Assembly (NCBI GenBank): GCA_028713895.1
Contig: JAQTNH010000001.1
Span: forward strand, 61,847-93,846
DNA length: 32,000 nt
From: Candidatus Nanoarchaeia archaeon
GTDB taxonomy: Archaea > Nanobdellota > Nanobdellia > CSSed11-243R1
Direction: 5' to 3'
Shown here: positions 4,109-30,155 of the stretch, one piece after another
How positions within the stretch are numbered: position 1 is the first letter of the stretch
Layout: each line of letters opens with the position of its first letter
Translations under genes and position numbers: made by a program
The notes under the pieces: generated by a model
Told to the model about the DNA's origin: nothing
Databases searched by the model: none
Seen by the model: only the letters and a program-made list of their open reading frames with translations

Positions 4109-4130
4109 ATCTAACTGTATTGCATAATAG

Positions 4131-4140
4131 TTTATAAATT
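4131..4140 (-). promoter_or_regulatory. TATA-like box for the 4108 surface-protein gene (leaderless spacing)
   Basis: tttataaatt, centred ~27 nt from ATG 4108. Confidence 0.45.
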
Positions 4141-4160
4141 TGTTGAAATACGGCTTTAAC

Positions 4161-4172
4161 AAAATTAATAAC
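4161..4172 (+). promoter_or_regulatory. TATA-like box for the GT2 gene (leaderless spacing)
   Basis: aaaattaataac, centred ~29 nt upstream of ATG 4195. Confidence 0.4.
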
Positions 4173-10856: not shown

Positions 10857-11807
10857 ATGCACAGGACACTGCTTGTTTTGCTGGCAATTGCATTTGCATT
10901 AGGATGCACAGGCTATAATCCGACGCAGGGGGCGGCTGAAGAAAATGTCACGTTGAGAATGAACGCGGCAGTCCCTGAACATGAAATGCAGCTGAATATT
11001 TCTTACCCGCTGCTGTATGAAAACCCGGTATGGAGCCACATGCCAATAAAAATTTACATTGACAGCGAAACCTCGCAGAACATAAGCTGGTTCAGCGAGA
11101 ATGTCATGGAGTACACGCGCAAAGGGATTGCAGAGTGGGAAAACGCAACAGGCGGACTGGTTTCTTTTGAAGAGATTACAAGCCCTGATGAAGCAGACAT
11201 AACAGTCTACTGGAACAAAAACATGGGGGAATCCGGAGGCGGAGTAAAGATAGGGGAAGCAAGACCATCTTATGTTGTTGATACTGGGTATTACAGCCTG
11301 ATTTCAGGAGGAACGATAACCCAGACACCATACACAACTTCCTGTGTAAACAAAGTGATTGCAACGCATGAAATCGGGCACATGCTCGGCTTGGACCACA
11401 ATGACAACGGGAAAAGCATAATGTACCCTTATGCATGGTGCTATCAGACAATCACTCCGGACATTGTTGATGCGCTTGAAAAAATTTACAACACTCCTGT
11501 TGAGGATAATACGGACATAGTCATGCTAAATGCCAGCGCAACAAGGCACGGGAGCTATGTTGATGCAGAAATTTACATTGCAAACAGGGGGGCTGCTGAC
11601 ACTCCTGCAACAAAACTTTCAGTTGTTGTGAATGACAGGGTTGTGCAGGAATTTGATGTTAAACCGCTGTCCGGCGGAATGTCAAGCGTGCTGAAATTCC
11701 AGAACGTGCATGTTGACGAAGAGTTTGATTCAGTGCAGCTTGAGCTCAACAGGGACAGGCTGTTCAATGAACTGTTCTATGACAATGATATTGCTGTCTT
11801 GAGTTAA
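10857..11807 (+). CDS. Matrixin-like (metzincin) zinc metalloprotease, putative lipoprotein, C-terminal CARDB-like domain
   Basis: HEIGHMLGLDH (HExxHxxGxxH) followed by the Met-turn SIMYP. N-terminus MHRTLLVLLAIAFALGC|TG (lipobox-like). C-terminus AEIYIANRGAADTPATKLSVVVND. TATA-like aatataaa at 10831-10838. Confidence 0.8.
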   Translation: MHRTLLVLLAIAFALGCTGYNPTQGAAEENVTLRMNAAVPEHEMQLNISYPLLYENPVWSHMPIKIYIDSETSQNISWFSENVMEYTRKGIAEWENATGGLVSFEEITSPDEADITVYWNKNMGESGGGVKIGEARPSYVVDTGYYSLISGGTITQTPYTTSCVNKVIATHEIGHMLGLDHNDNGKSIMYPYAWCYQTITPDIVDALEKIYNTPVEDNTDIVMLNASATRHGSYVDAEIYIANRGAADTPATKLSVVVNDRVVQEFDVKPLSGGMSSVLKFQNVHVDEEFDSVQLELNRDRLFNELFYDNDIAVLS

Positions 11808-12649: not shown

Positions 12650-13933
12650 ATGAGAGCTTGGCATTTATGGGATTTTTCCCCAAACTTATTTACAATATCA
12701 TTAAATGATGAATTCATCGATTGTCTTAAAAATAAATTAAATAAGACTTCTTTTTATAAATTAGGAAAAAATATAAATTTAAATTATGTGTGTATACACC
12801 AAGCCTTTAACAGAAATAGATTCCCTTTATACATCATTCTAAAAATATGTAACTTTTTGAAAATTAACTATAAACGATTGGAGGAAAATGTTATATCATT
12901 TACATGTTACAATGGAAAAAATAGAGTAACTCTTCCAGTATTGCCAATTATCGAATCTAATGAATTGTATGAATTAATTGGACATCTATTAGGAGATGGG
13001 TATCTATCTAAAAAACTTGGCCAAATGAGCAATTATACGAATACGTCAAAAGAGCTGATTGGCAGGTTTATATTTTTGATAAATACGGTTTTTGGAAAAG
13101 TACACGTAGGTGTATATCATGATAAACGGTTTAATGCTGATACGATAGGTATACCCAAAGCATTAGAATTTATTTTATTTGAAATGTTTCCTGAATTAAA
13201 AGAAGGAAAAATGCCGCAAAATCTACTTGGATCACATCTACAATTTGCCTCTTCATTTATTAGCGCATTTGCAGATGACGAATCTTGCGTAACAACATCT
13301 GCGATAGTTTTAACTTCTATCAACAGATTACTGCTTTTAGACATAAAGAAACTTTTACTAAGTAGACTAGGATTCAGCGAAGATACAGTTACAGAAGTAA
13401 AAGCAAAAAAGAATCTATTTATATTGTCCATTAAAGGTAAGGGATTAAAAAAATTTAGCGAAGCGGTAGGTTTTGTACATCCGCAAAAACGAGAGGATTT
13501 ACTGTTTGAAATAGAAAGGAAAAACGCCAATAACAAGCCTAAAAGTGCGGGGCAAATCAAAGCAAAAATAACTCAGCAGCTGAATCTGCCAAAAACATCC
13601 AAGGAATTGTCCATAGTATTAAAAATCCAAAGACAGAATATAAGTAAGCACTTAAGGGAATTAAATAGTAAAGGTTATGTAGGAATACACTCTATTTCCA
13701 AATACAAAGTTCCGAAATGGATAAAATTAAAGGAGTTTATCCCTTTAACAGACAATTATAAAAATAATATCTTAAATCTTTTATTGACTAAGCGAGATTT
13801 AAGAACAAAGCAAATATCTGATTATCTAGTATTAAGCACGGATGAGACACTAAGATACTTACATCAGCTGAGAATCTCTGACAAAGTGTTTTATAAAGTC
13901 ATAGGGAAAACATATTATTGGGCGTTAAAATGA
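12650..13933 (+). CDS. Free-standing LAGLIDADG homing-endonuclease-like protein with HTH/winged-helix modules
   Basis: Motif 1 LIGHLLGDGYL and motif 2 FISAFADDES, with the acidic residue retained in both. C-terminal wHTH-like segments TSKELSIVLKIQRQNISKHLRELNSKGYV and LRTKQISDYLVLSTDETLRYLHQL. No Hint/intein blocks. Strongly AT-rich. Confidence 0.75.
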   Translation: MRAWHLWDFSPNLFTISLNDEFIDCLKNKLNKTSFYKLGKNINLNYVCIHQAFNRNRFPLYIILKICNFLKINYKRLEENVISFTCYNGKNRVTLPVLPIIESNELYELIGHLLGDGYLSKKLGQMSNYTNTSKELIGRFIFLINTVFGKVHVGVYHDKRFNADTIGIPKALEFILFEMFPELKEGKMPQNLLGSHLQFASSFISAFADDESCVTTSAIVLTSINRLLLLDIKKLLLSRLGFSEDTVTEVKAKKNLFILSIKGKGLKKFSEAVGFVHPQKREDLLFEIERKNANNKPKSAGQIKAKITQQLNLPKTSKELSIVLKIQRQNISKHLRELNSKGYVGIHSISKYKVPKWIKLKEFIPLTDNYKNNILNLLLTKRDLRTKQISDYLVLSTDETLRYLHQLRISDKVFYKVIGKTYYWALK

Positions 13934-16089
13934 ATATTGAAGAACTTGAGAAATTCGGGATATCCATGAAAATTGTAGAGCTGTTTAAAGAAGAAAGAAT
14001 TTTACGATTAAATCCTCCACAACAAAAAGCAATACAGACCGGATTGTTTGATGGTAAAGATATAGTCGTAGCATCTCCAACGTCTTCAGGCAAATCAATG
14101 ATTATGACTTTAGCCTTTATAAAGAACTTATTGTCTGAAGGCGGAAAGGCAATTTATATTTCTCCACTGAAAGCATTAGCAAGTGAAAAGTATGAATATT
14201 ATAAAAACTTGTTCAAAGAATATCCGCTTAAAGTTGCAATTAGCACGGGTGATTTTGATTCTTTTGATAGAGGGTTGGCTAATAACAATATTTTGATATT
14301 AACTGTAGAGAAACTTGATAGTTTGATTCGTCATAACATTCCATGGTTGAATGAAATCAAAGTTATAATTATAGACGAAATACATCTTTTGGATGACGCG
14401 AACAGAGGGCCTACACTTGAAGTCCTGATTACGCGCCTGAAAAACTTCTGCCCAAAGGCGCAGCTTATTGCGCTGTCTGCTACAATCTCAAATGCAGATG
14501 AGATTGCAAAATGGCTCGGCGCAGAACTTGTGAAAAGCGATTATCGTCCAGTTGAACTGCATGAGGGAGTTTACATAAACGGCGAGCTTGACTTTGGCGG
14601 TAAAATTGAGAAGCTGAAGGGCAAGTCAGATGTTCCGGAAATCAGGATTCTTGAAGACACGCTTGCAAAGAACAAGTCAATGCTGCTTTTTGTTTCGAGC
14701 AGGCGCAATGCAGAAGGCTGCGCAAAGAAATGCGCTGACACAGTTGCTGCAAGCCTGAATGCTGAGGAGAAAAAAGAACTGGAAGCGCTGAGCAAGGAAA
14801 TTCTTGATGTTCTTGAAACACCGACAAAGCAGTGCGAGGATTTGGCAGAGTGCGTTAAAAGCGGAGTTGCATTCCATCATGCTGGCTTGGTTGCGAAACA
14901 GCGCAGCCTGATTGAAAATGCATTCCGAAGCAGACTCATTAAAATAATTTGTTGCACTCCAACTTTGGCCGCGGGCTTAAATTTACCTGCATTCCGCGCT
15001 GTTGTGCGGGATTTGAAGCGATTTGACTCGGAGGAAGGAATGGGATTCATTCCTGTGCTGGAGTTTAAGCAAATGTGCGGCAGAGCAGGTAGGCCAGGCT
15101 TGGATGACTCAGGACAAGGAATCGCGATTGCAAAGACAGTGAAGGAAGCAGAGGAGATTCGTGAAAAGTATATCAAAGGTATTCCAGAAGATGTTTACTC
15201 AAAACTGTCAGTCGAGCCTGTGCTGAGAATGCAGATTCTCGGACTGATTTCAACCGGAGAAATAATCGACAGGAAATCGCTGATGGGATTTTTTGCAAAA
15301 ACATTTTATGCTGTCCAGTACAAGAACCTTGACAGGATTGAAAACAATCTTGACAAGATAATGAACGAGTTAATTGGCTGGGGATTCATAAAACCTGAGG
15401 GTCAGAAGCTTCTTCCCACGCTGATTGGAAAGCGAGTTGCCGAGCTTTATATTGACCCGTACTCTGCGCACAAAATAATGGAGGCGCTGAAGAAATCAAA
15501 CCAGGAGCCGCTTTACTACATCCACACAATATGTTCGTGCGTTGAGATGCGCCCGCTGCTTTACATCTCCTCGAAGGATTTTTCTGAACTGCAGCAGAAG
15601 TCGCTGAAGTTTGATGATGTGCTTCCTGAGGCGCCGTCTGCATGGGATGTTGATTATGAAGTATGGTTCCGCGCAATCAAGACAGCTTTCATGCTGAATG
15701 ACTGGATAGGGGAAAAGAACGAGGCACAGCTGTTTGATGAATATCACGAAACTCCTGGAATGCTGAAGAACAGGCTGAACAATGCTGACTGGATGCTTTA
15801 TTCCATGGGCGAAATTGCAGGACTGCTCAAGAGAAAAGAGGACCTGACTCCCTTGCGAAAGCTGCGGATAAGGATGAAATACGGCGCAAAGGAAGAGCTG
15901 CTCAATCTTCTGCGGTTCGAGGGAATCGGAAGAATCAGGGCGCGAAAGCTTTACTTCAGCGGAATCAAGAGCGTTGTTGATGTAAAGAAAATCGCATATG
16001 AGAAGCTCTCTGACTTAATCGGGCCAAAGATTGCAAAGAAGCTCAAGGACCAGGTTGTCAGCGAGGAGCAACAGAATTTGGGACAATAA
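13930..16089 (+). CDS. hel308: Hel308/Ski2-like superfamily 2 DNA helicase
   Basis: Motif I SPTSSGKS, II DEIH, III SAT, IV-V HHAGL and TPTLAAGLNLPA, VI QMCGRAGRPG. C-terminal HhH-like LRFEGIGRIRARKL. ATG 13930 (the track starts at TTG 13918) forms an ATGA overlap with the upstream stop. Confidence 0.9.
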   Translation: MNIEELEKFGISMKIVELFKEERILRLNPPQQKAIQTGLFDGKDIVVASPTSSGKSMIMTLAFIKNLLSEGGKAIYISPLKALASEKYEYYKNLFKEYPLKVAISTGDFDSFDRGLANNNILILTVEKLDSLIRHNIPWLNEIKVIIIDEIHLLDDANRGPTLEVLITRLKNFCPKAQLIALSATISNADEIAKWLGAELVKSDYRPVELHEGVYINGELDFGGKIEKLKGKSDVPEIRILEDTLAKNKSMLLFVSSRRNAEGCAKKCADTVAASLNAEEKKELEALSKEILDVLETPTKQCEDLAECVKSGVAFHHAGLVAKQRSLIENAFRSRLIKIICCTPTLAAGLNLPAFRAVVRDLKRFDSEEGMGFIPVLEFKQMCGRAGRPGLDDSGQGIAIAKTVKEAEEIREKYIKGIPEDVYSKLSVEPVLRMQILGLISTGEIIDRKSLMGFFAKTFYAVQYKNLDRIENNLDKIMNELIGWGFIKPEGQKLLPTLIGKRVAELYIDPYSAHKIMEALKKSNQEPLYYIHTICSCVEMRPLLYISSKDFSELQQKSLKFDDVLPEAPSAWDVDYEVWFRAIKTAFMLNDWIGEKNEAQLFDEYHETPGMLKNRLNNADWMLYSMGEIAGLLKRKEDLTPLRKLRIRMKYGAKEELLNLLRFEGIGRIRARKLYFSGIKSVVDVKKIAYEKLSDLIGPKIAKKLKDQVVSEEQQNLGQ

Positions 16090-17988: not shown

Positions 17989-18111
17989 TGGGGCTGGAGA
18001 GATTTGAACTCTCGACCACACGCATTTCAGGACTTTTCTTTCGCTGGCGTTTCTTTTCGCAAAAGAAAGGCCGCCCCAAGCGCGCATTCTACCAAGCTGA
18101 ACTACAGCCCC
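17989..18111 (-). tRNA. tRNA-Pro (anticodon GGG) with a 49-nt intron; no encoded CCA
   Basis: Hand-folded. Acceptor GGGGCUG/CAGCCCC, U8 A9, D-arm GUUC-AGCUUGGUA-GAAU (G18 G19). Anticodon stem CGCGC/GCGUG, loop UU-GGG-G..U, variable UGGUC. T-arm GAGAG-UUCAAAU-CUCUC, discriminator A. 74 nt mature plus 49 nt intron gives 123 nt. Confidence 0.85.
18025..18073 (-). other. tRNA intron at the canonical 37/38 position
   Basis: The sequence between G37 and U38 is CGGCCUUUCUUUUGCGAAAAGAAACGCCAGCGAAAGAAAAGUCCUGAAA. It contains a perfect 8-bp hairpin UUUCUUUU-GCG-AAAAGAAA (18050-18068). Exact splice boundaries are inferred from the cloverleaf. Confidence 0.7.
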
Positions 18112-18177
18112 GTTTAATAAATAAATCTAATTTTGCTCTTAAAAAGGTTTTTAATGTAATAATTCCTTTAAAAAGAC

Positions 18178-19407
18178 ATGAAAATCCCTTTAATGAAAAG
18201 AGGACAGGACAGGGGATATGCTGTACCATTGATTCTGCTCGGGTTTTTAGGCGTGTTTCTCCTGTACATAATATTAGTTTACCCATCTGAGCGCGCAAAG
18301 CTGCTCAACATAGACACTGATAATGGAGAAGAGGTTTCGCCGTTAGGGGAAGGAACCGAGGTTCTTTACAGCAGCGGAGAGCGTTTTGAAGTCGGCAGGG
18401 CGGTTGGAAGCGAGGTTTTCAGCTGGAAACTCAACAATGCAATCGTAAGCCATGCTGCTGTGCCAAAAACTCTTGACTCCACAGCAAACAGGGTGATGTC
18501 TGCAACGCTTGTGAGCTCGGACACAGAATCTTTCAGCGCAAACAATCTTAATCTCGCAAACACAAAAGATGTTGTTGTAAAACTTAACATTGAATCAATA
18601 AAGGGAAACCCAAAAATACAGATTATACTCAACAAGACAATGATTTATGAAAAAGCCGCGGCAGCAGGAGAGACAAACATCCGGATACAGCCGGGGCTTC
18701 TTGATGAAGACAGCAACCCGATATATGTGAAGGTGCTTCACCAGGGAGCTGCATTCTGGAGCGTGCAGTCAGTCAGTTTCAACTCTATAAATATTGACCA
18801 GTATTATTACGACCCTGAAAACTCAATAAGCCCGCAAAATGTGATAATTTCCGAGAACAATTACAGGGGCAGCAGAGTGAACCTTATATTCAATGTCACG
18901 AGCGCTGTAACAGACGGGGAGCTTAACATAGCAATCCAAAAGCCAGGAGCAGCGAAGACTGTTGTATGGAGCGGAGCTCCAGAACTCGGGGTTGCAACAG
19001 CTTCATTTGACATTGACCAGATTGGAATCGGGGAAAACATAATCTCATTTGAGGCAAAGAAAGGCGGAGAGTACGCAATTGCGAACACAACACTGAAGTT
19101 CTTCGCTGAGAGCCAGCCTCCTGCAATAAAAACATATTCCTTTGACATTGAAGCCTCAAAACTGTATTCAGGCAGGGTTATAATGCTCGGCGTGAAAGTT
19201 GACAGGATAATTGAGCCAGGCTCATTGTTCTTCACAGTAGGAGCAAGCCCGCTGTCCTATTACTTCCCGTCAGCAGACATAGCTTCAGGAGCATGGAGCT
19301 ACACGCAGCTTGACAAAGGAAAGCTAAAGGAGCTCGGGAACAAGATAATACTTGACTCTGTCAACGGACGCTTCAGCATAAGCGGATTGATGATAATATT
19401 AAAGTAA
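18178..19407 (+). CDS. N-terminally anchored extracellular protein, first gene of the surface operon
   Basis: N-terminus MKIPLMKRGQDRGYAVPLILLGFLGVFLLYIILVY. The alternative ATG 18193 fits TTTAAAAA at 18165-18172 as a leaderless start. Sequons NKT, NVT, NTT. No family recognised. Confidence 0.7.
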   Translation: MKIPLMKRGQDRGYAVPLILLGFLGVFLLYIILVYPSERAKLLNIDTDNGEEVSPLGEGTEVLYSSGERFEVGRAVGSEVFSWKLNNAIVSHAAVPKTLDSTANRVMSATLVSSDTESFSANNLNLANTKDVVVKLNIESIKGNPKIQIILNKTMIYEKAAAAGETNIRIQPGLLDEDSNPIYVKVLHQGAAFWSVQSVSFNSINIDQYYYDPENSISPQNVIISENNYRGSRVNLIFNVTSAVTDGELNIAIQKPGAAKTVVWSGAPELGVATASFDIDQIGIGENIISFEAKKGGEYAIANTTLKFFAESQPPAIKTYSFDIEASKLYSGRVIMLGVKVDRIIEPGSLFFTVGASPLSYYFPSADIASGAWSYTQLDKGKLKELGNKIILDSVNGRFSISGLMIILK

Positions 19408-19423
19408 GGTGAAAGGTGACTAA

Positions 19424-21004
19424 GTGCCTCCAGTAAAGTTTTTTGCGAATTTAGCAGGGAAAGCAACAAAATTCGGGAGTAATGTGACTTCTAAAGCCAG
19501 CGCTGGAATGCAAAAATACCAGCAGGCAAAGCAGGCTGCTTCCCCGTATCTTGAAAAAGCTGAAGCTGCAAAAAACTGGGTCGGAGGAAAAGCAAGCGCA
19601 GTTAAAGGCGGGGTTGTTGCGGGCGCTGCTGCAGGCGGAAGATATTATGGCGCTGTGAAAGATGCAGGGCACAGGATGTTCGGAGGGCTCAGCATATTCA
19701 AGGGAGTCGGGCCTGTAATCGGGATTTTCCTCATAATTCTCCTTATCATGGTGGTGTTCTGGTTCATGAGCAAAGGCGGGCTCCAGGCAACAGGAGGGAG
19801 CGAGTACACCGCTGAAAAGCAGACTGAAACATTGTTCCAGAATGTATGGATACGCCGCGTAGAAGACTGGTTTGCAAACCCGTTCGGGGTGCGCGCAACA
19901 TCTGGCGAATATGAGGAAACATCCACAACATCGCCGACAACATCAACTGCCCCAAACCAGGCGTTCACTGTCGAGATAAAAACAACGCCCAGCATAGTTC
20001 AGTATAATACAAACGGAATCACTGCGGTCATAACAACAAAGAACGAGGGAACAACCATAATAAAAGAACTCAAACTTAATATCACTTCAGAACAGCCGGC
20101 TGGAAAATGCCTCAGATTTGACACGCTGCCAGCAGGCTGCAGCCCAGTTGTAGCCGGAGAATACATCTGCAATATAAGCGATGTTTACCCGCTGTCTTCA
20201 AAACAACTTGTGATTTCAGGCGGATACATTGATGAAACCTGTGTCGGTGACACATTCGGAACTTCTTTTGACCCTGCAATACCTGTGTCTGTTTTTGTAA
20301 ATGTAAAGGGCAGCACATATTATCCTGCGTCCTCAAGGCTTGCTGTTGAGCGAATAAAAACAGCTTACGGCACTCTGCTGATACAGAACTCGCTTCTCAT
20401 GCAGCAGCAGCGCGGGGCAATTTACCAGACAGGCACAGCGCTGACTCTTGACATGGATGCTGGAGAACAGCCAATCCTTGACAGTGTTGACCAGGGCGGG
20501 CTTTTATTCAGCTGGACAAATGTGGGCAACGGCAAGATGGACTCAACCAAAAACCCGTTCCTTTTCATAGTAACTCCAGACAGCTTTGGGCAGTGCATAT
20601 TCCAGGGATTAGGTTCAACACAATATGAGTACACGCTGGGCCAGAGTGTTGATGTTGTATGCGACAACACTGCTGTGCTTGGAAGCAAGTACAAGTGCAT
20701 AGTATGTGATGCTTCACTGCAAACTTCATGGTGCCAGGAAGGCAATCCAGTGTACCAGCAGATAGAGAAGAGCGCTGGAAGCATAAAAGAAAGCTTTGAC
20801 TGGGCATGCGGACTTGTAGGAAACGGCTATCATGTCTGCGCAACAAACGGGCTCACACAGGAGTTCGGCCTGATGACATGCCCTCTTGTGTTCACAGAAC
20901 CAATAAATGCAAACAGGATTACAAGGTATGTAACTGCGGTTGCATTGTACCCATACGTAGTTGAAGCGCCATACTCAACAGTGCAGGCATTCAGACAGGT
21001 GTAA
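19424..21004 (+). CDS. Single-pass membrane protein: ~95-aa K/A/G-rich N-terminal tail, TM, Thr/Ser linker, CARDB-like segment, Cys-rich ectodomain
   Basis: GTG start 4 nt after GGTGA (19415-19419). TM VGPVIGIFLIILLIMVVFWFM. Linker TSTTSPTTSTAP. ITAVITTKNEGTTIIKELKLNITSE. 12 Cys, all after the TM. Confidence 0.7.
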   Translation: MPPVKFFANLAGKATKFGSNVTSKASAGMQKYQQAKQAASPYLEKAEAAKNWVGGKASAVKGGVVAGAAAGGRYYGAVKDAGHRMFGGLSIFKGVGPVIGIFLIILLIMVVFWFMSKGGLQATGGSEYTAEKQTETLFQNVWIRRVEDWFANPFGVRATSGEYEETSTTSPTTSTAPNQAFTVEIKTTPSIVQYNTNGITAVITTKNEGTTIIKELKLNITSEQPAGKCLRFDTLPAGCSPVVAGEYICNISDVYPLSSKQLVISGGYIDETCVGDTFGTSFDPAIPVSVFVNVKGSTYYPASSRLAVERIKTAYGTLLIQNSLLMQQQRGAIYQTGTALTLDMDAGEQPILDSVDQGGLLFSWTNVGNGKMDSTKNPFLFIVTPDSFGQCIFQGLGSTQYEYTLGQSVDVVCDNTAVLGSKYKCIVCDASLQTSWCQEGNPVYQQIEKSAGSIKESFDWACGLVGNGYHVCATNGLTQEFGLMTCPLVFTEPINANRITRYVTAVALYPYVVEAPYSTVQAFRQV

Positions 21005-22185
21005 TGATGAAAAAAGAAATTATAACCATCGGACTCTGCATGATTTTTGTAAGCATGATTCTAGGATGCTCATTCCTCGGCGGAGGCTCAAAAAATGAAA
21101 CCAAGCTCACAGTGGAGCAGGGAATCGGTGTTGTAGGAACTTTGAATGTTGACGAGCTCAACCCAGGGCTTGACGGATACATTTCCCTGACAGTGCGAAA
21201 CAACCTTGGCGGAGAAAGCGCAAGCAAGGTTTATGTTTCGCTGGATAATGTTGAGCCTTTCAAGATTTTCGAGTGCGGCGCATTCCATAATGTCTCGTCT
21301 GAAATAAGGGACTGCACAGGAGAATTCTCGCTTGACAAATACCTGCCGTACAGGAGCCATGGAGAAAGCAAGATGTTCCCTGGACAGGAACTGCAGTTCT
21401 ACTGGAGGCTGAGAGCGCCGTCAAAAACAGAGATATCAAACATTGCACTGCGCCACCCGATTTACTATGATTTGGAATATGATTACAGGACAACTTTTAC
21501 GCAGAACATAATATTCATGTCACAGCAGGAAGTCCTGCGACGAAGACAGGCTGGAGAAACATACCAGGTTGAAGGGGAGGCAAGCAGCGGAGCAGGTGAA
21601 TTAAGAGTCACCGGAGCAACGCAGCAGCCAGTCACATACCAGTTCATGAACCCCTCAGACATAACAACAACTGAAAGCGAATTCCCGTTCTCGCTCAGCT
21701 ATGCTGTAACGAACGAGGGCAAAGGGCTGCCGCTGTCGGATGTTGTTGTTTTGGTTGAACTTCCGCGCGGCAAGTTTGATTCAGCCAAAAAGGACATTGT
21801 GGCAGACAATGAAACAATGTCGCAGTACGGCTGGATGAAGTTCAAAGACATGGAAAGCGAGGGAACCAACTGCAGCACAGGCTCAGGCGAAAAAAACTGC
21901 TCAACATGGATACAGGAAACATACGGCAATGAGTTTAACTCATTGTTCGGAACGGCAATAACAGAAGACAGGCTGCTTGTAAAAATTGTGAAGCGCACTG
22001 ACTTCATAAACGAGTTTTCACTGTACCTTCCGCTCAAGCTGGTTGCAGGAGACAGGACAAGCGGGATGACTGCACTGAAAAACCTCCAGATTCCGATACA
22101 GATATACGGATTCAAAATGCACAATATGTACAGGTATTTCACAGAAGGAAGCTCGGAAATAGCGGTATTCCCTGTGAGAGTTTAA
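21004..22185 (+). CDS. Putative lipoprotein with CARDB-like domain
   Basis: MMKKEIITIGLCMIFVSMILGC|SFLGGG (lipobox). GYISLTVRNNLGGESASKVYVSL..PGQELQFYWRLRAPSKTE. AGGTG at 20997-21001. The ATG overlaps the upstream TAA (TAATG), and a second ATG at 21007 is equally possible. Confidence 0.7.
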   Translation: MMKKEIITIGLCMIFVSMILGCSFLGGGSKNETKLTVEQGIGVVGTLNVDELNPGLDGYISLTVRNNLGGESASKVYVSLDNVEPFKIFECGAFHNVSSEIRDCTGEFSLDKYLPYRSHGESKMFPGQELQFYWRLRAPSKTEISNIALRHPIYYDLEYDYRTTFTQNIIFMSQQEVLRRRQAGETYQVEGEASSGAGELRVTGATQQPVTYQFMNPSDITTTESEFPFSLSYAVTNEGKGLPLSDVVVLVELPRGKFDSAKKDIVADNETMSQYGWMKFKDMESEGTNCSTGSGEKNCSTWIQETYGNEFNSLFGTAITEDRLLVKIVKRTDFINEFSLYLPLKLVAGDRTSGMTALKNLQIPIQIYGFKMHNMYRYFTEGSSEIAVFPVRV

Positions 22186-22245
22186 ACAGCAAAATGGTTA
22201 TAATCACCAATTATATTAAGAATAATAATTAAAGGAGGTCAAAAA

Positions 22246-23094
22246 ATGAAGAGATTAGCATTTATGGCAGTAGCATTGTTTGCACTGATATTTGCCCTTG
22301 GATGCACTGGCGGTGATAAAACCGAAGAAGCCGGTACAGGACAAGGCTACTCGATGACAGTATCTCCGACTGACACGATAACAGGGAGCCCTGTTACAAT
22401 TGACTTGAGGCTTGAAAACATATTCGACAAGGACATGACAGGTGTCACTGTACGAATGAAGGATGTCTCGTCAATATACAACAAGGACGGAGAACTGACG
22501 ACAGGAACAACAATAATCAAGGGACAGACATACCCAGTAATAATGACGCTGTCTTCGGACAGAGCCGGAACAATTTCTGGAAAACATGTTGAAGTCTGCT
22601 TTGACTATGACACAGAGTATTACTTTGACATAGGGCTCAAATCAAAGTCACAGGCAGCAGAAGAGCTTGCTGTTGAAAGCGGAGCATCAAGCGGACCGCT
22701 TGGAGTCGCAGTAGTCGGGCTTGAAAATGTTTTCTATGAAAACTTGAAAGGCACCGGAGCACTTACACTGTCAAATGAATGGCAGGGAACGATAAAAGAG
22801 ATTAAATCTGTCTCAGCAGAATTCCCAGTCGGGAGCTATGTCCGCAGCGGAGCGATATCAATCTCAGGATGCACAGGAACAACAGCTGGCGGAGTAACGA
22901 CAGTCAAGAGCACAGACACAGGATGCAGCATTTTGAGCAATGATGTGGCAATAGCAAACGGACTGACTCTCAGAACAGAAGTCGATGTTAACGCAACACA
23001 GACAGCCCTGACAGTCGAGAGAACAGTTGGAAATGTAATCTACAACTATTGCTATGACATTGACTTGCCAACGTTGACAATCAAATCGGTGTAA
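22246..23094 (+). CDS. Putative lipoprotein with CARDB-like domain
   Basis: MKRLAFMAVALFALIFALGC|TGG (lipobox). AGGAGGT at 22233-22239, 6 nt before the ATG. SPVTIDLRLENIFDKDMTGVTVRM. Confidence 0.7.
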   Translation: MKRLAFMAVALFALIFALGCTGGDKTEEAGTGQGYSMTVSPTDTITGSPVTIDLRLENIFDKDMTGVTVRMKDVSSIYNKDGELTTGTTIIKGQTYPVIMTLSSDRAGTISGKHVEVCFDYDTEYYFDIGLKSKSQAAEELAVESGASSGPLGVAVVGLENVFYENLKGTGALTLSNEWQGTIKEIKSVSAEFPVGSYVRSGAISISGCTGTTAGGVTTVKSTDTGCSILSNDVAIANGLTLRTEVDVNATQTALTVERTVGNVIYNYCYDIDLPTLTIKSV

Positions 23095-23098
23095 TAAG

Positions 23099-24259
23099 AT
23101 GAAAGGGAAAACTTTTTTTCCATTTTTTTTATTTTTTATTTTCTTAGTGGTATTTATTCTCGGATGCAGCAGTTTTGGCGGTGACGGACTCAGCAAGCAG
23201 ACAACAGCTGCAAAATTCTCAAAAGGAGTATTCAACAGCACAATTCTTATAAACGGCGCTGAAAAAACAGAGCTCACTCTTACAAACAGGCAGCCGGCAG
23301 AGATAGGCTTGTTTGTAAAGAACCAGGGCCCGAATGACATCAACAATGTCAATATACGCGCAATAGGCTGCGTTGACATTGATTCCTCGCAGTCAACAAA
23401 GAGCGTGGTGCAGAAAGGAACCACGGATTATTTCAGCTGGAGCATACGCGCCCCTGAGCTCGGGACAAGCGAAAGCTTCTCCTGCCCGCTTATACTGCGA
23501 GCATGCTTTGAAGAGACATCAAACGGATACATGGAGCTTGTCGTTGTAAACGAAACATATTCAGAAGCTCCAAGCACCCCGAATTTCTACTACAAAAGCG
23601 GGATATTCACTATTGAGCCAAATTTCGGGGCTTTCAGGATAATAAATGATTTGAAAAGCGACCCTGATGTGCTTTACGGCACATTAAAAATCAAGAACAC
23701 AGGCAGCGGATGGATTGATTACCTGAACCAGACAGAGGAGTCTGACCTTGAGATAAACAAAATCAAAAAAATAAACATGACAATTGATTCCTCAAGCGCG
23801 CTGGAGTTCTACAAAATCGGCGATATAAGCAAGGCAAGCGGGTCTGCGATTTATTCGTATGTCACAACAGGCAGTGCACAGTCATCGCATTGCGACAGCG
23901 ATATGGGAGACGGATATGAAACCACAATAAACGGGCACAGCGCATACTGCAGGTATGTGAGAGACTGCACTGACGGAAAATTCTATGAATGCTGGCATGA
24001 CTCTGCATGGCAAAAATTATATGTCATCAGCCTGGATGGAAAAAAGCTTAATCTTGCATCAGGCGCACTTGACATCGGAAGCTCGGATTACAATTATTTC
24101 CTCAGCCTGATTGGCGGACAGGAGCTCAGCATCTATCTGGGGATATTCGCGCCGCAATATCCAGCCAAGGATATATCATATGATATGGTTGACTACACAA
24201 TAGAAAGCGGATACTGCATTGATCTGGCATCCCTCAATGTGCACCTGACTGGCAGGTAA
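23099..24259 (+). CDS. Putative lipoprotein with CARDB-like domains
   Basis: MKGKTFFPFFLFFIFLVVFILGC|SSFGG (lipobox). GGTG at 23088-23091. AEIGLFVKNQGPNDINNVNIRAIG..YFSWSIRAPELGTSE. LYGTLKIKNTGSGWIDY. 8 Cys after the lipobox Cys. Confidence 0.7.
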   Translation: MKGKTFFPFFLFFIFLVVFILGCSSFGGDGLSKQTTAAKFSKGVFNSTILINGAEKTELTLTNRQPAEIGLFVKNQGPNDINNVNIRAIGCVDIDSSQSTKSVVQKGTTDYFSWSIRAPELGTSESFSCPLILRACFEETSNGYMELVVVNETYSEAPSTPNFYYKSGIFTIEPNFGAFRIINDLKSDPDVLYGTLKIKNTGSGWIDYLNQTEESDLEINKIKKINMTIDSSSALEFYKIGDISKASGSAIYSYVTTGSAQSSHCDSDMGDGYETTINGHSAYCRYVRDCTDGKFYECWHDSAWQKLYVISLDGKKLNLASGALDIGSSDYNYFLSLIGGQELSIYLGIFAPQYPAKDISYDMVDYTIESGYCIDLASLNVHLTGR

Positions 24260-24330
24260 AATAATTCTTTTGGAAACCGAGGGTTCCATGATTGCATATA
24301 TAATATAGGCGGAAAATAAACAAAAAGAAA

Positions 24331-25026
24331 TTATCCTGATAATGTAAAGTCATACCACCACGGGCGGGCTTCTTTGATGAAATCTCCAGTCTCTGCATCA
24401 TACTGCTCAGTGATTGTTGCATTCATCGGGAAGACTCCAAGAAGTTTTCGCTGCTCAATTGCATAGTGCGCGTAAACTGCCTTGCCGTTTGATTCCTCAA
24501 GCTTAAGCCCCACTGATTCGCGCTTCTCTGTCATGTTCTGCCCGCGCTCCTGCACTTTTTCCATTATCTGCGAAGGGGCTGCGTTGACTTCAGTGGCGCC
24601 GACAAACATCTTTCCGTTCTGAAGATGCAGTTCAGCTGTGTTAACAATAACAGTTCCATCCTGGATTACAATTGTGTTGAAGTTTGGCGTGACTGTTACT
24701 GTCTTTCCCTGAATCCCAACTGTGATTACTTTTCCAACTGCGCTTTCAAGCTCTGTCTCTGTTACAATCGCTGCAGGCAGCACTCTGACATCATCTGAAA
24801 CCGCATTCATGTCCTCTGCGCTAATCTGCCGCTCCTGGAACAGCTTATGTATTGTCGGGCTGTCCTCTACAACAGGTTCAGAAACCAGTGTCGGCTGCGG
24901 CGCTGGAACCGCCTCTGCGAATACCGGAGTAGTTATTATGCTTGATGCCGAGTTATCTGTGTTTGCAGATGCAAATGGAATCATAAACAGAACCAAAAGT
25001 GCCGCTAAAGATAGTTTAGTATTCAT
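24331..25026 (-). CDS. Secreted protein, possible PepSY-like C-terminal domain
   Basis: Signal peptide MNTKLSLAALLVLFMIPFASA|NT. C-terminus LEESNGKAVYAHYAIEQRKLLGVFPMNATITEQYDAETGDFI resembles the PepSY pattern (G..VY.V....V.VDA.TG.V). GGAGG at 25034-25038 lies 7 nt upstream. Confidence 0.6.
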   Translation of the reverse strand: MNTKLSLAALLVLFMIPFASANTDNSASSIITTPVFAEAVPAPQPTLVSEPVVEDSPTIHKLFQERQISAEDMNAVSDDVRVLPAAIVTETELESAVGKVITVGIQGKTVTVTPNFNTIVIQDGTVIVNTAELHLQNGKMFVGATEVNAAPSQIMEKVQERGQNMTEKRESVGLKLEESNGKAVYAHYAIEQRKLLGVFPMNATITEQYDAETGDFIKEARPWWYDFTLSG

Positions 25027-25862: not shown

Positions 25863-27620
25863 TTACTCATTCCTGATGCTGTTCCTAAGGATTCCCTCGA
25901 CAGTCTCGTCAGCATCATAGTAAAGCAGTTCATGCGCAAGGCTTGAATCCGCTCCTATTACCTCGTGGTAAAGGTTGTTTAACATTGTTTTGAGTTTTCT
26001 AAGCTCTTTTATGGTATATGTCATGCCTTGGAGTTGTTTAGTTTCAACTACTGTCGTTTCATGTATCTCTTTTGCGAACTCAGGTCTGCCGTGCTTTGTT
26101 CCAAGCGCTTTCCTGTTAATCCCGCCATAAGCTTCATTGATAGCCTTTAGCTGGCGCACAGTTGCAATCTGGCCCAGGTTCCTTGTTTCCTTTTTTGAAA
26201 GAGGTTCATCATCAAAATATCTTGTACGGACTCCAACACGTTCAATCTCTCTTGGATTTAGTTCCAGATATCCTTCGCTGTCAAAATTAAAATTAATCTC
26301 CTGAGCAGTATTCCCAAATATTGCGGGATAGAAAAGCGGTATATCTGTCATGTTAAACGCCCTGGTAATATTTTTTGTGGCCTGTCGCATAGTTTCATTT
26401 ATTTCTCTGGATTTATTACCATAAAATATGTCCCTGCTCCTGTTATTGTTGGCGTTGATTGCATTATGTTTCATGGTTTTTACATTTTCATCACTTAGAT
26501 CAGGGCATTCAATGAAACAGTGCCTTCCATTTGTAAACTTCTTTATGTCCCTGAATAACTGTTCAGTCATTTCATAAAGCTTAACACGATTTAGGGGTCC
26601 GTTGGTTTGCTCTACGCGCATATTGCGTCGTCTTGATTCGTATTCATCTGTATTGAATTTTGTATCCTCCCAGCCCTTATTTTCGTTAATTTTAATTATG
26701 AAATCATATATATCTTCGTAGTCCACGTATTGGTTTGACTTAAGTATTGAAAAAACAGACTCCCTGTCGCATAAAAATTCTGATTGAATGTCCTTATAGG
26801 ATACTGATTTGTCTTTATCGTTTTCCTGAATTTTTTGCACATAGGATTTTAGTTGATTCCAATTCTTAAAATTCTTGAAAAAATCGGGTTCTGAAAAACC
26901 CAAATAGTACGGAAATTCTTTCATTTTTGCAGCCGTGTAAAATGTCAATTCTTCAGGCCATATCTCGGATACGATATCATCATTAAAAAAGGGATCTGTA
27001 ATATTTCCAAGCCCTCTATTGTTAAGATTGAAATTAAAGTATCCTATACCAGTTATTCCATGTTTTCTTATTACAGTTTCGTCCTCGCCTGTGTGCACAC
27101 ATTTTTTGAAAAACTCAAGGAACCTCTTCTTGTTTTCGTCCTTTGAAAACCTTTCGCTCAGTCCGTATATGCTGTCATCTGCAACAAAAGCAAGCACCGC
27201 CTTGTTCTCTTTTGCGTATTCCTTCCACTGTTCAAGGTTGTCAAGTATTTTTTCTTCCCCGCACTCGCCTTTTTTGATGTTATATAACTGCATTGATTTC
27301 AGAAGATAGTGCAAATCATCAACCACAACAAGAACTGGTTTTCTATTGTCCTTGGTTTTTTCAAGAAGAGTGTACTCAACACTGGCTTTTTTAATCAGTT
27401 TTTTCTTGTCAAGAGCATAAAGTTCAATTGGTATTTCTTTTGCAAGCAGCCTGAACAGATGGGTTTTTCCGACTCCCCTGTCCCCTGTGACAAGCTTTGT
27501 TTCATAATCCTTGAAAAGGGGGGTAAACATATAAGTTGCAGGGACTCCTTCGAAGCAGTCGCTGATTGAATTGTCATACTCTGCCCTGCATAATTTTTCA
27601 AGCTTGCTCTCTAAAGCCAT
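25863..27620 (-). CDS. Orphan P-loop NTPase (AAA/ORC-like N-terminal ~190 aa) with ~400-aa uncharacterised C-terminal region
   Basis: Walker A TGDRGVGKTHLF, Walker B PVLVVVDDLHYL, AVLAFVADDS. Own TATA-like box (27653-27661) and GGGTG before the ATG. AT-rich relative to both neighbours. Confidence 0.75.
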   Translation of the reverse strand: MALESKLEKLCRAEYDNSISDCFEGVPATYMFTPLFKDYETKLVTGDRGVGKTHLFRLLAKEIPIELYALDKKKLIKKASVEYTLLEKTKDNRKPVLVVVDDLHYLLKSMQLYNIKKGECGEEKILDNLEQWKEYAKENKAVLAFVADDSIYGLSERFSKDENKKRFLEFFKKCVHTGEDETVIRKHGITGIGYFNFNLNNRGLGNITDPFFNDDIVSEIWPEELTFYTAAKMKEFPYYLGFSEPDFFKNFKNWNQLKSYVQKIQENDKDKSVSYKDIQSEFLCDRESVFSILKSNQYVDYEDIYDFIIKINENKGWEDTKFNTDEYESRRRNMRVEQTNGPLNRVKLYEMTEQLFRDIKKFTNGRHCFIECPDLSDENVKTMKHNAINANNNRSRDIFYGNKSREINETMRQATKNITRAFNMTDIPLFYPAIFGNTAQEINFNFDSEGYLELNPREIERVGVRTRYFDDEPLSKKETRNLGQIATVRQLKAINEAYGGINRKALGTKHGRPEFAKEIHETTVVETKQLQGMTYTIKELRKLKTMLNNLYHEVIGADSSLAHELLYYDADETVEGILRNSIRNE

Positions 27621-27680: not shown

Positions 27681-30155
27681 TTAAAACTCGCCGAGACTCT
27701 TTTGTTTGGTCGGCTTGCCCAATGTCAAGTCTTTTGGAAACTCAGGAACCCCGTATTCGCCGTCATAGCCTGGCTTGACTGTGACTTTTCCCTCTCTGTT
27801 AAGCATGATTGCCTTTGCAAGGCGGCGGTCAACATGCTGGCACAATTCCTCTTCCTTGGCATCCAGTAGAATGTGAAGCTCGTTCGGGAACTTTGCCATC
27901 AACGCATCAAAGACTCTGCTGACTGTCTTAGTGCCGACTGCTGTAAGATAGATTGCGGAAATAATTTCCTGAAGCGGAAGAATTGACTTGAAAGGGATTG
28001 CGTGCGCTGGCTTGAATCCTTCTGGGCGGTCAGCAAGCTCCTCAACGCGGTGCTCTACCCCGATGGTCAGCCCTTTGTGGCATTTCGGGCAGATATCCTT
28101 TTGCGCAATAGATTCTTTTGGCGACAAACAAATGTTGCAGGCACGGTGTCCGTCGTAGTGGTATTTGCCATAAAGCGGCGAGGTTTCAATCGTGTAAAGG
28201 AACTCGGATTTGTTTTTTGTCTTGATTGCATTGAGCATTGATTTAAGAGAAGGCTTTGCGAGCTCGAAGACATTTGCTTCCCTTCCAAGGCGGTTCGGCC
28301 AGGGAGAGTGGCAGTCGCTGTTGCTTATGCAGCAGAACCTGTCAAGCTGTGACAGACGCCAGTTCATCGCAGGGTCCGACGAAAGTCCGGTTTCGATTGC
28401 ATGAATGTGCCTGATTGAATCCCCAAAGCATTCCTCTGCTGAGTTGAACCCTGACTCAGAGCCGAACATTGAAAACCAGGGGGTCCAACAGTTATGGACT
28501 GTCGCAAATTCGGTTACATAAGAATTGTCATCCTCTACTTCAAGATTGTATACTAAACCATCATAATCTTCGAATTTAATTGTTCTTATCGGAAGATAGG
28601 CATAATTTTTGTCAATCCATCCATGCTTCATTGCTTTCTTATTAACAAATTTTCTGAAACATTTTTCTTTCAACATATCGTAATCTTCTTCAAAAAAGGA
28701 TAAGTTAGAAAAAACGATTGTGTCATTTACTGTTTTAATTGTTCGCCCCTTAGTAATATGTTTTCGCATATTAAATTTTTCAGCGGTTTCAACACCTATT
28801 GAAGGTATTATACCCAATTTAAGGCAAATCATTTTCATTTGATTTGCCAGTTTGCGTGAAACTGTATATCCTGTATCCCCCCTCCACCATCCGCGCAATA
28901 TTTCAGCTATTTTAGGGTCTGGTAATAATATCATCCAATCAGGGATACATTTGTTCCATGCTCGCGAGCCATCTGTATAAAACAATTGTTTAAACAGTTC
29001 ATTTAAAATATGAGAATAAAACACAATATCCATCTGATTTTCACGTCTATTATCTATCTTAAATGAAGTTACACCAAAACTTTCTTTCATAAACATTATT
29101 ACTTCATTCGCATATTCTTTCTCTTTAGCATGAAAACTGAAACCTACTGCTTCATTTCTTACTAAGTAACCTTCTGCGATATAATAACCTGCTAAACGGC
29201 AAAAATTATTGTTAATTTGAATTGTGTTATGTATCATGTTTTTTTTATTTTTGGATTTTTGTGGCAAAATTTTGTCAGAATCAGATAGTTTACAGTTAAC
29301 CAGTTTATTTAGTTTTATAGAATCCACATCTTTTATTTCAATTGGTCGAGGATACAATAAAAAGTCTCCAACTTCAAGATTTTTTGCCTGAACCCATTCG
29401 GGTTTGTAGCCACTGTAATATTTTCGCTTGCATTCCATGCGCTGAGAACATAAAGGTTTACATACGCCTTTAATCCAAGAGCACTTTTTAAGACTTTTAA
29501 TTACAAAAAAAGGATGTTCTGGTGTTGTTGTTAGACCCTCTCTAAAATACCAAGGAACAATTTTATGAACTTTTCCAGAATAGTTTCGAGTATAAACCTG
29601 TTTTATTGTTTTGAATCTACATTTATGTGTTAAGACTTTGTCTCCAATCTGTACTTCTTTTATTTTTTTGTCATCGGGATTACAATGTAAAATTGTGTCA
29701 GGCAATAAACAATGCGCGGGGAAAATAAAGTTGTCCTTGTTGATTTCCATAACTTTCTCAACGAATTCCGGGGTTGGGATATTAAAGATTGGCCTGCCGT
29801 CGTAGTCCACTCTCCCTCTTGTCTTCAACCACTCTGTGATTTGCTCGGCTGTCTCAATGTCCGGCGAGACAATGCAGTGATGCACGCGGTAGCCTTTTCC
29901 ATTCTGCGTGTAAATGAGAGAGACTTCTGTGCTCGGGACAAAATTCATTCCGTTGTGCACATAGAATCCTGTTTCGCTGTCTAGCTTCAGCAGGCGCTTC
30001 ATGTCAGCCATCTGGCTCGGATGGGTGTAATCGCCTGTGCCAAGAAGATTGAGCCCCTTCATCTTTGCGTATTTTGAAAGGCTGTCAATGTTCATGTCAG
30101 GAGAGGTTGCCCTGCTGTATCTGGAATGAATGTGCAAATCAGCAACGAGTTTCAA
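27681..30155 (-). CDS. endoQ: EndoQ-like PHP-domain endonuclease with Zn ribbon, interrupted by an intein
   Basis: N-terminus MKLVADLHIHSRYSRATSPDM..LGTGDYTHP (PHP). After the intein, CWTPWFSMFGSESGF..HAIETGLSSDP. Zn ribbon CNIC..CPKC. The exteins sum to 417 aa. TTG start 4 nt after GGTGA (30160-30164), which overlaps the PAC2 stop. Confidence 0.75.
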   Translation of the reverse strand: MKLVADLHIHSRYSRATSPDMNIDSLSKYAKMKGLNLLGTGDYTHPSQMADMKRLLKLDSETGFYVHNGMNFVPSTEVSLIYTQNGKGYRVHHCIVSPDIETAEQITEWLKTRGRVDYDGRPIFNIPTPEFVEKVMEINKDNFIFPAHCLLPDTILHCNPDDKKIKEVQIGDKVLTHKCRFKTIKQVYTRNYSGKVHKIVPWYFREGLTTTPEHPFFVIKSLKKCSWIKGVCKPLCSQRMECKRKYYSGYKPEWVQAKNLEVGDFLLYPRPIEIKDVDSIKLNKLVNCKLSDSDKILPQKSKNKKNMIHNTIQINNNFCRLAGYYIAEGYLVRNEAVGFSFHAKEKEYANEVIMFMKESFGVTSFKIDNRRENQMDIVFYSHILNELFKQLFYTDGSRAWNKCIPDWMILLPDPKIAEILRGWWRGDTGYTVSRKLANQMKMICLKLGIIPSIGVETAEKFNMRKHITKGRTIKTVNDTIVFSNLSFFEEDYDMLKEKCFRKFVNKKAMKHGWIDKNYAYLPIRTIKFEDYDGLVYNLEVEDDNSYVTEFATVHNCWTPWFSMFGSESGFNSAEECFGDSIRHIHAIETGLSSDPAMNWRLSQLDRFCCISNSDCHSPWPNRLGREANVFELAKPSLKSMLNAIKTKNKSEFLYTIETSPLYGKYHYDGHRACNICLSPKESIAQKDICPKCHKGLTIGVEHRVEELADRPEGFKPAHAIPFKSILPLQEIISAIYLTAVGTKTVSRVFDALMAKFPNELHILLDAKEEELCQHVDRRLAKAIMLNREGKVTVKPGYDGEYGVPEFPKDLTLGKPTKQKSLGEF
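28491..29711 (-). mobile_element. Full-length intein (407 aa) with LAGLIDADG homing endonuclease domain
   Basis: Begins C149 (FPAH|CLLPDTILHC, block A). Block B LTTTPEHPFFV. LAGLIDADG motifs LAGYYIAEGYL and LRGWWRGDTGY. Block F VYNLEVEDDNSYV. Ends ATVHN|C556 (block G plus the +1 Cys). In-frame 1221 nt, much more AT-rich than the exteins. Confidence 0.85.

Follow-up and report, generated by a model that had tools for sequence, protein, structure and literature searches.

What kind of structure is built by an archaeal operon whose five products all carry a hydrophobic anchor or signal and none of which belongs to an annotated family? The question is raised by five consecutive genes, here called g1 to g5, which lie on the forward strand at positions 18178 to 24259 of a 32,000-nucleotide stretch (the window) of contig JAQTNH010000001.1 from a Candidatus Nanoarchaeia archaeon. 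An earlier note on this DNA, made from its letters alone, had proposed that they form an undescribed cell-surface or adhesion module. The operon structure of the five genes, the anchors, paralogy and folds of their products, and their conservation and synteny are consistent with a heteromeric, membrane-tethered envelope scaffold or adhesion platform that is vertically inherited and specific to the Nanoarchaeia, a reading to which we assign a probability of roughly 0.45.

If the genes belong together their order should be conserved in relatives, and it is. Eight other distinct genomes retain the order g1-g2-g3-g4-g5, with proteins 25-65% identical. It occurs in the loci L003, L005/L011, L006, L008 and L009 (30-65% identity) and was detected with hidden Markov models (HMMs) in the far more distant L014 (Ca. 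Tiddalikarchaeum anstoanum, Tiddalikarchaeales), L015 and L016, while the short contigs L012 and L013 retain the g2-like/g3/g4-like order. In every long locus the module is flanked by the Hel308 helicase and a PAC2-(Nop10)-eIF2alpha-S27e-L44e-GINS-primase block. The conserved order in the same chromosomal slot indicates a resident, single-copy module that has been inherited vertically in at least two Nanoarchaeia orders. The G+C content of its genes (0.44-0.48) lies inside the range for the rest of the window, so that composition and position together uphold the idea of a resident system rather than a recent import. Recent horizontal import and a proviral origin were considered and rejected on synteny, on composition and on the PHROGs search, which returned no match and hence no phage signature for any of the five proteins. 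An archaeal origin of the window is consistent with its intron-containing transfer RNA (tRNA), Hel308-type helicase, PAC2, Nop10, eIF2alpha and inteins, and a protein identical to g2 is encoded by the metagenome-assembled genome GCA_028713185.1, which is labelled Candidatus Nanoarchaeia archaeon (DPANN, Nanobdellati).

The proteins of the module diverge only moderately faster than the products of the flanking housekeeping genes. Identity to the orthologues of the five closer loci is 39-65% for g1 and g3 and 30-45% for g5, the fastest-evolving member; for Hel308, PAC2 and eIF2alpha it is 45-71%, and the range of the flanking housekeeping genes set against g5 is 51-71%. Such a rate fits a core structural component better than a fast-changing, host-specific adhesin. 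At E<=1e-3, a search of 1.84 billion cluster representatives yields only 67 for the g3 family, and its named members are all Nanoarchaeota or Nanoarchaeia. Repeating the profile search for g2 homologues brought up no protein beyond the 10 already found. A genome scan with g1 matched only four species representatives, from which it follows that the distribution of the module given here is an underestimate.

Four of the five products appear to be related to one another. With signal peptides removed, hhalign aligns g3 with g4 at 90% probability, g3 with g5 at 95% and g4 with g5 at 98%, each time collinearly and over nearly the full length, and by this profile comparison the three are paralogues. 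The g2 ectodomain and g3 form a collinear alignment of 296 columns (E 2e-4, 45% probability), and that ectodomain is probably a distant fourth paralogue. The comparison of g1 with g2-g5, which served as the control, gives a probability of 3% or less, and g1 is unrelated to the others in sequence. The module is thus probably made up of one unrelated protein and four paralogues, the fourth of which is assigned at a weaker grade. Common to g2-g5 are a central YY/CFDY strand, a Y-x-Y strand at the C-terminus and a hxhxNxG strand with an Asn that is invariant in g2 (N207), g4 (N58) and g5 (N75) and at least 90% conserved in g3 (N66).

The hxhxNxG strand had been read in the earlier note as the signature of CARDB/NEW3-type beta-sandwiches in these four proteins. 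The motif and the general fold hold, as the models of g2 and g3 are Ig-like sandwiches, but membership of the CARDB family does not. None of the five proteins matches CARDB (PF07705), DUF11 (PF01345) or any other Pfam family at E<=1, and the g3-family alignment (A1) reaches only 0.14% probability in hhalign against the CARDB domain encoded elsewhere in the window. A likeness in structure is seen in g2 domain 1 (19961-20326, + strand), an Ig-like beta-sandwich of the CLIPPER/DUF11/CARDB type in which N207-x-G209 is invariant. Residues 180-300 of g2 are modelled at a predicted local distance difference test score (pLDDT) of about 87-93, and Foldseek superposes this domain on CLIPPER 9ifr with a target-normalised TM-score (TMt) of 0.60, a root mean square deviation of 3.9 Å and a probability of 1.00. 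The first ectodomain of g2-g5 resembles CARDB and DUF11-CLIPPER domains in its hxhxNxG strand. The four proteins differ from those domains in having a second domain of their own, two very long strands and the common C-terminal Y-x-Y strand, and in matching none of their HMMs.

The fold is seen most completely in g3 (21004-22185, 393 aa). Its AlphaFold2 (AF2) model (mb4d29aa631f1; pLDDT 92.5, predicted TM-score 0.85) comprises a signal helix, a flexible linker, tandem beta-sandwiches and a helical insert, the sandwiches being joined by two strands of about 25 residues each (149-173 and 365-388). Foldseek searches of the PDB and BFVD with this model gave generic tandem Ig-like matches only, at a query-normalised TM-score (TMq) of 0.22 or less. 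They include integrin alpha legs, factor XIII barrels, complement MG domains, FnBPA/ClfA-type adhesins, RbmA and DUF11 proteins. No Pfam family was found in 36 members of the g3 family; among nine long members scanned, one distant protein of 1102 aa matches DUF11 and Ig domains.

Three of the paralogues begin like lipoproteins, as had been claimed. A lipobox is present as ILGC in g3 (21058-21069, +), where G21 and the presumptive lipid-bearing Cys22 are conserved in at least 90% of the sequences of A1, as ALGC in g4 (22294-22305, +; G19 and C20 invariant) and again as ILGC in g5 (23156-23167, +; G22 and C23 invariant). A [GAS]C lipobox following an n-region and h-region is found in 41 of 44 g3-family sequences and in all nine sequences each of g4 and g5. 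Looser lipoprotein patterns accommodate IL and AL at positions -3/-2. These residues, IL in g3, AL in g4 and IL in g5, fall outside the strict [LVI][ASTVI] consensus given for archaea (PMC12462473), and the mature domains of g3-g5 belong to no described lipoprotein family. In n-region, h-region and conserved G-C lipobox they are like the lipoproteins of the AliA/AliB-dependent archaeal pathway, and lipoproteins are reported to be prevalent in DPANN archaea (PMC12462473). The best PDB matches of the g4 profile also fall on lipoprotein signal regions (6all_A, E 0.008, signal region only). Presumably g3, g4 and g5 are lipidated. Like g1, the three are acidic, with isoelectric points (pI) of 4.6-5.4 for the four proteins.

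The fourth paralogue, g2 (19424-21004, 526 aa, with a GTG start), is an integral membrane protein. It has the single-pass topology that had been described for it, a tail of about 85-95 residues being followed by one transmembrane (TM) segment at roughly residues 86-122. The TM helix (19709-19774, +; AF2 helix 96-116) ends in a juxtamembrane WF..GG(L/G)Q motif, of which G118, G119 and Q121 are invariant in the alignment of g2 orthologues (A3). The ectodomains of the orthologues are 38-50% identical, and the most conserved part, judged by the invariant columns of A3, is the Cys-rich C-terminal domain (20327-21001, +). This holds the motifs TYYP.SSRLAVERI, QPILD, FLFIVTP, C-x-x-C-D, HVCATN and ALYPY, and the C-terminal half contains seven invariant Cys, including those of the C-x-x-C; the model is only moderately confident there. 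This domain lies in register with g3 in the hhalign comparison (E 2e-4, 45% probability).

The cytoplasmic tail of g2 (19424-19708, +) had been suggested as a possible link between the envelope and the cell interior, a suggestion that finds little support. The tail is rich in Gly, Ala and Lys, of low complexity and unconserved. Residues 1-96 are modelled at a pLDDT below 50 and are disordered, and the tail cannot be aligned among orthologues, in which its length and the number of TM segments vary. In L005, L009 and L014-L016 it is replaced by extra TM segments; two to seven segments are predicted in other lineages, and three to seven in the homologues of the distant L014-L016. Its composition, predicted disorder and variability make the tail poor evidence for a connection to the interior. 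A signalling role was rejected on the same grounds, and the tail looks like a variable membrane anchor.

The unrelated member, g1 (18178-19407, 409 aa), lacks Cys and has a pI of 5.4; a few basic residues at its N-terminus lead into a single hydrophobic helix, which is followed by an ectodomain of about 370 residues. A Kyte-Doolittle scan finds a single hydrophobic segment, at residues 11-38, so that all five products do have the hydrophobic anchor or signal attributed to them. The description of g1 as a protein with an N-terminal anchor stands only in part, however, because the segment is preceded by a conserved [KR][GAS]Q. The N-terminus MKIPLMKRG/Q (18178-18207, +) has the appearance of a class III, or prepilin-like, signal, and its Q10 is invariant in the alignment of g1 orthologues (A2; 11 sequences, mean column identity 61%). 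It is followed by the hydrophobic helix YAVPLILLGFLGVFLLYIILVY (18217-18282, +) and then by the conserved YPSERAKLL, both delimited from hydropathy and from conservation in A2. All 11 A2 sequences, and also L014 and L015, have [KR][GAS]Q ahead of a hydrophobic helix of about 22 residues, a pattern confined to g1 orthologues among 156 open reading frames (ORFs) of at least 150 aa in nine loci. The consensus N-terminus of A2 is KKGQYAVPVILIG; L014 has MNRGQVAV and L015 MKKGQIAV.

These N-termini have the form of the published processing sites of EppA, which are KGQV, KGQI, KGQL and RAQI and require Gln at +1 (PMC4371748). On sequence grounds an EppA/Epd-type class III signal, which may be cleaved, describes the start of g1 better than a plain anchor does. 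It resembles the EppA-processed type IV pilins of the Methanococcus Epd pilus in the basic N-terminus, [KR][GA] at -2/-1, Gln at +1 and a helix of about 22 residues. It differs from them in its 409-aa length with a large ectodomain and in lacking the QxSxExxxL/DUF361 motif; the consensus residue at +5 is Pro and not the Glu of class III signals. In the window copy (Q-DRG-YAVPLILL) a polar insertion separates the Gln from the helix, as do two or three residues (DRG, GTG or SG) in its closest relatives, and in most other orthologues the helix begins at +2. No pilin or archaellin family was matched by g1 in Pfam or NCBIfam, and the A2 profile gave no PDB match at all at E<=0.4. No type IV filament (TFF) ATPase, platform protein or prepilin peptidase is encoded in the window or within 10 kb on either side in the related loci.

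The five genes are arranged as a compact same-strand operon, as had been reported, with spacings of 16, -1, 60 and 4 nt at g1/g2, g2/g3, g3/g4 and g4/g5. The stop codon of g2 and the start of g3 share one nucleotide, and an overlap of -1 or -4 nt at this junction is found also in L006, L014 and L015. Ahead of g1 lies a candidate promoter, read from the sequence as a transcription factor B recognition element (BRE)/TATA-like element, AAAAAGG TTTTTAAT (18141-18155, +), centred about 27 nt 5' of the ATG, and each of the nine loci compared has an A/T-rich TATA-like box equally far from its g1 start. The sequence read upstream of g1 contains no Shine-Dalgarno-like site, unlike that of g2-g5, and the position of the TATA-like element implies that the g1 mRNA is probably leaderless or nearly so. 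The internal genes each have a ribosome-binding site of their own, again as had been noted, 3-16 nt 5' of the start: two copies of GGTGA before the GTG of g2 (19408-19419, +), GGTG before g3 and within the 3' end of g2 (20998-21001, +), AGGAGGT before g4 (22246-23094, 282 aa) at 22233-22239 (+), and GGTG before g5 (23099-24259, 386 aa) at 23088-23091 (+). A leaderless first gene followed by Shine-Dalgarno-led internal genes is the usual layout of archaeal operons. Just past the g5 stop a T-rich tract, TTCTTTT (24265-24271, +), is a possible archaeal oligo-T terminator, and the gene downstream of g5 is convergent. Two of the related loci contain an extra ORF. In L005/L011 this is a 544-aa ORF between g1 and g2 without a Pfam match (L005 8327-9961), and in Ca. 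Tiddalikarchaeum a 114-aa ORF with two TM segments (L014 7833-8177).

Searches for known families identified no enzyme and no relative of a characterised system among the products. Pfam and NCBIfam gave no meaningful match for the five proteins and no enzymatic family at E<=1, no enzyme fold occurs among the Foldseek matches of the g2 and g3 models, and PDB profile searches with the g1-g5 alignments gave sub-threshold matches only. Class II fusogen, pilin and TasA folds are absent from the top Foldseek matches of g2 and g3. In the literature that could be searched there is no description of the five-gene operon. The frequent N-x-S/T sequons pointed out in the earlier note are present, 16 of them in 1996 aa, at a density 2.3 times that of eight cytoplasmic proteins of the window; as an enrichment the observation does not stand, since the number lies within one or two standard deviations of same-composition shuffles.

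How such an operon might build a scaffold can be sketched. A single transcript from the conserved TATA-like promoter, leaderless for g1, would direct the synthesis of five exported proteins in a fixed order, and the tight or overlapping junctions, notably g2/g3, would favour matched stoichiometry and roughly equal amounts. The base of the complex in the membrane would be g2. Exported by means of their lipobox signal peptides, g3, g4 and g5 would presumably be lipid-anchored by an AliA/AliB-type pathway. For g1, entry into the membrane would be by its prepilin-type (class III, +1 Gln) signal-anchor, which would be either clipped by an EppA/PibD-type peptidase or kept as an anchor. If the five proteins associate physically, their non-catalytic ectodomains (about 250-400 aa, two-domain and Ig-like) could assemble into a heteromeric membrane-proximal layer that would serve as a scaffold between the membrane and the outer surface, and possibly also as a platform for contact with other cells.

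Some observations weigh against this reading. The fold matches of the module are common to the bona fide adhesins ClfA/B, FnBPA, Bap, Esp and CLIPPER. Some lineages have an expanded g3 of 870-1321 aa, a size typical of outward-facing adhesins, and the g2 model is confident in part only (mean pLDDT 59.5). It is also unlikely that the module is the S-layer lattice itself, because the S-layer candidates of cultured DPANN archaea are single proteins of more than 900 aa (bioRxiv 10.1101/2023.10.27.564410). The module is like SlaA/SlaB and the DPANN candidates NEQ300, Micr_00292 and MJ1_0160 in consisting of jointly encoded, exported, acidic, Ig-like-rich proteins with a membrane-anchored member. 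It differs in being made of five small proteins, each tethered to the membrane at its N-terminus, with no lattice protein above 900 aa and no sequence similarity to those systems.

An adhesin complex that docks an episymbiont on its host, with g2 as the base and g3 (and g5) as variable binders facing outwards, would fit the fold likeness to integrin legs and to adhesins of the MSCRAMM, Bap, Esp and CLIPPER kinds. The length range of g3 among lineages (368-1321 aa) and the fast evolution of g5 agree with such a role, as does the DPANN lifestyle, for which surface Ig-like or lectin-like attachment factors have been proposed (bioRxiv 10.1101/2023.10.27.564410). Strict single-copy synteny and moderate conservation across orders are, however, atypical of host-specific adhesins, none of the five proteins shows a lectin, pectin-lyase or other recognisable binding domain, and five short membrane-tethered proteins would have limited reach. 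We regard a dedicated host-attachment apparatus as somewhat unlikely. A further explanation starts from g1. After processing by an EppA-type peptidase, this protein could enter an Epd-type (TFF system 1) filament, or else a pseudopilus of the bindosome-like kind, as a minor pilin or a large pilin-like adhesin, and g2-g5 would form an assembly or anchor complex on the membrane side. The basic N-terminus, [KR][GAS]Q and helix are specific to g1 orthologues and match the form of the EppA sites KGQI and KGQV (PMC4371748), TFF system 1 has been reported in DPANN archaea, and Epd clusters hold large proteins with class III signal peptides and adhesin domains. This proposal has to contend with the lack of linked filament machinery at any locus to a distance of 10 kb, with the absence of a pilin, archaellin or PDB pilin match, and with departures from the signal itself: Pro instead of Glu at +5, the polar insertion of two or three residues in the window copy and its closest relatives, and KRGT in place of [KR][GAS]Q in L016. 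We consider it improbable that the module serves a type IV filament as its tip or accessory complex.

More doubtful still is a fibre formed by donor-strand exchange, of the TasA/AbpX or type V pilus kind, in which the lipoprotein paralogues would polymerise head to tail from a g2 base. The two best PDB matches of the g3 profile, both sub-threshold and both on the first sandwich domain, are to AbpX (9sj2_C, E 0.031; 9rhp_A, E 0.2), which self-polymerises without a chaperone by donor-strand complementation, and g3 has a conserved N-terminal segment, ETKL..QG.GV, that is not a strand in the model. The Bacteroidia fimA-E and mfa1-5 clusters are five-gene lipoprotein operons of two-domain beta-sandwich subunits. 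By formal analogy the module, with its putative paralogous lipoprotein-type subunits of two beta-sandwich domains, resembles these type V pilus operons. The AbpX matches are not significant and were not reproduced with the g4 or g5 profiles or by the fold search, for which reason this lead was demoted; AbpX, TasA and FimA/Mfa are absent from the top 50 Foldseek PDB matches of g3 and g2. The monomer model of g3 is complete and confident with no open groove reported, the operon encodes no processing or maturation protease, and the organism, unlike those with type V pili, has no outer membrane. Polymerisation of this kind is thus very unlikely, and the membrane-tethered scaffold or adhesion platform is the reading carried forward here.

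The surroundings of the module include several features of their own. Upstream, a tRNA-Phe(GAA) gene with an intron of about 49 nt (17989-18111, -) lies 67 nt from g1 on the opposite strand; it was missed by ARAGORN at default settings and found by Rfam (52 bits) and by the intron mode of ARAGORN. Compared with every related locus, the segment 12650-17981 shows a local rearrangement. Hel308 (13918-16089), divergent in those loci, points in the same direction as the module in the window, a free-standing LAGLIDADG/helix-turn-helix ORF (12650-13933) abuts it, and the interval between Hel308 and g1 contains as insertions a 201-aa ORF, an HD-domain protein, a 134-aa ORF and the tRNA. Downstream, convergent with g5, is a gene for a secreted 231-aa protein with a cleavable-looking signal peptide (24331-25026, -), conserved only in the closest relative, L006 (35% identity), and outside the conserved module. 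The gene at 25863-27620 (-) encodes a 585-aa AAA-ATPase-like protein with a counterpart in none of eight related loci and may be an inserted or accessory gene. Beyond it, at 27681-30155 (-), an 824-aa MJ0043_C-family protein contains an intein with a LAGLIDADG domain at about residues 153-516, and its L006 orthologue is insertion-free and 397 aa long. Other putative surface proteins of the window are an M10 (matrixin-like) metalloprotease at 10857-11807 (+), with a lipobox ALGC and a genuine CARDB domain, and a DUF11-containing protein with an N-terminal hydrophobic segment at 2723-4162 (-). At 3-2742 (+), three tandem paralogous ORFs of 271, 300 and 341 aa are mutually 48-53% identical and have neither a Pfam match nor a hydrophobic N-terminus.

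As of 2023, no S-layer or attachment protein of a DPANN archaeon had been experimentally determined (bioRxiv 10.1101/2023.10.27.564410), and the envelope and host-contact structures of these organisms are largely obscure at the molecular level. The module offers a concrete target, on the grounds that it occupies the same locus in at least two Nanoarchaeia orders, consists of surface-tethered, unannotated families and includes a subunit with a pilin-type signal. Its parts are of known kinds, namely lipobox proteins, CARDB/DUF11-like Ig domains and a class III-like signal, while the five families and their combination are undescribed; we claim no categorically new principle, as the folds and anatomy demand none. 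Should the products prove to be merely generic surface Ig-like proteins, the value of the locus would lie mainly in its use as a phylogenetic and synteny marker for the clade. At the other extreme, g1-g5 could be a single ancient, class-wide envelope machine of the Nanoarchaeia, in which a prepilin-type g1 and a hetero-tetramer of g2-g5 form the principal membrane-proximal scaffold, a host-docking organelle or both; this we hold to be possible though on the doubtful side, and if true such a machine would be without a described counterpart in any cultured archaeon. For the biology of the group, the module adds an archaeal lipobox family and may add a new substrate class for class III signal peptidases.

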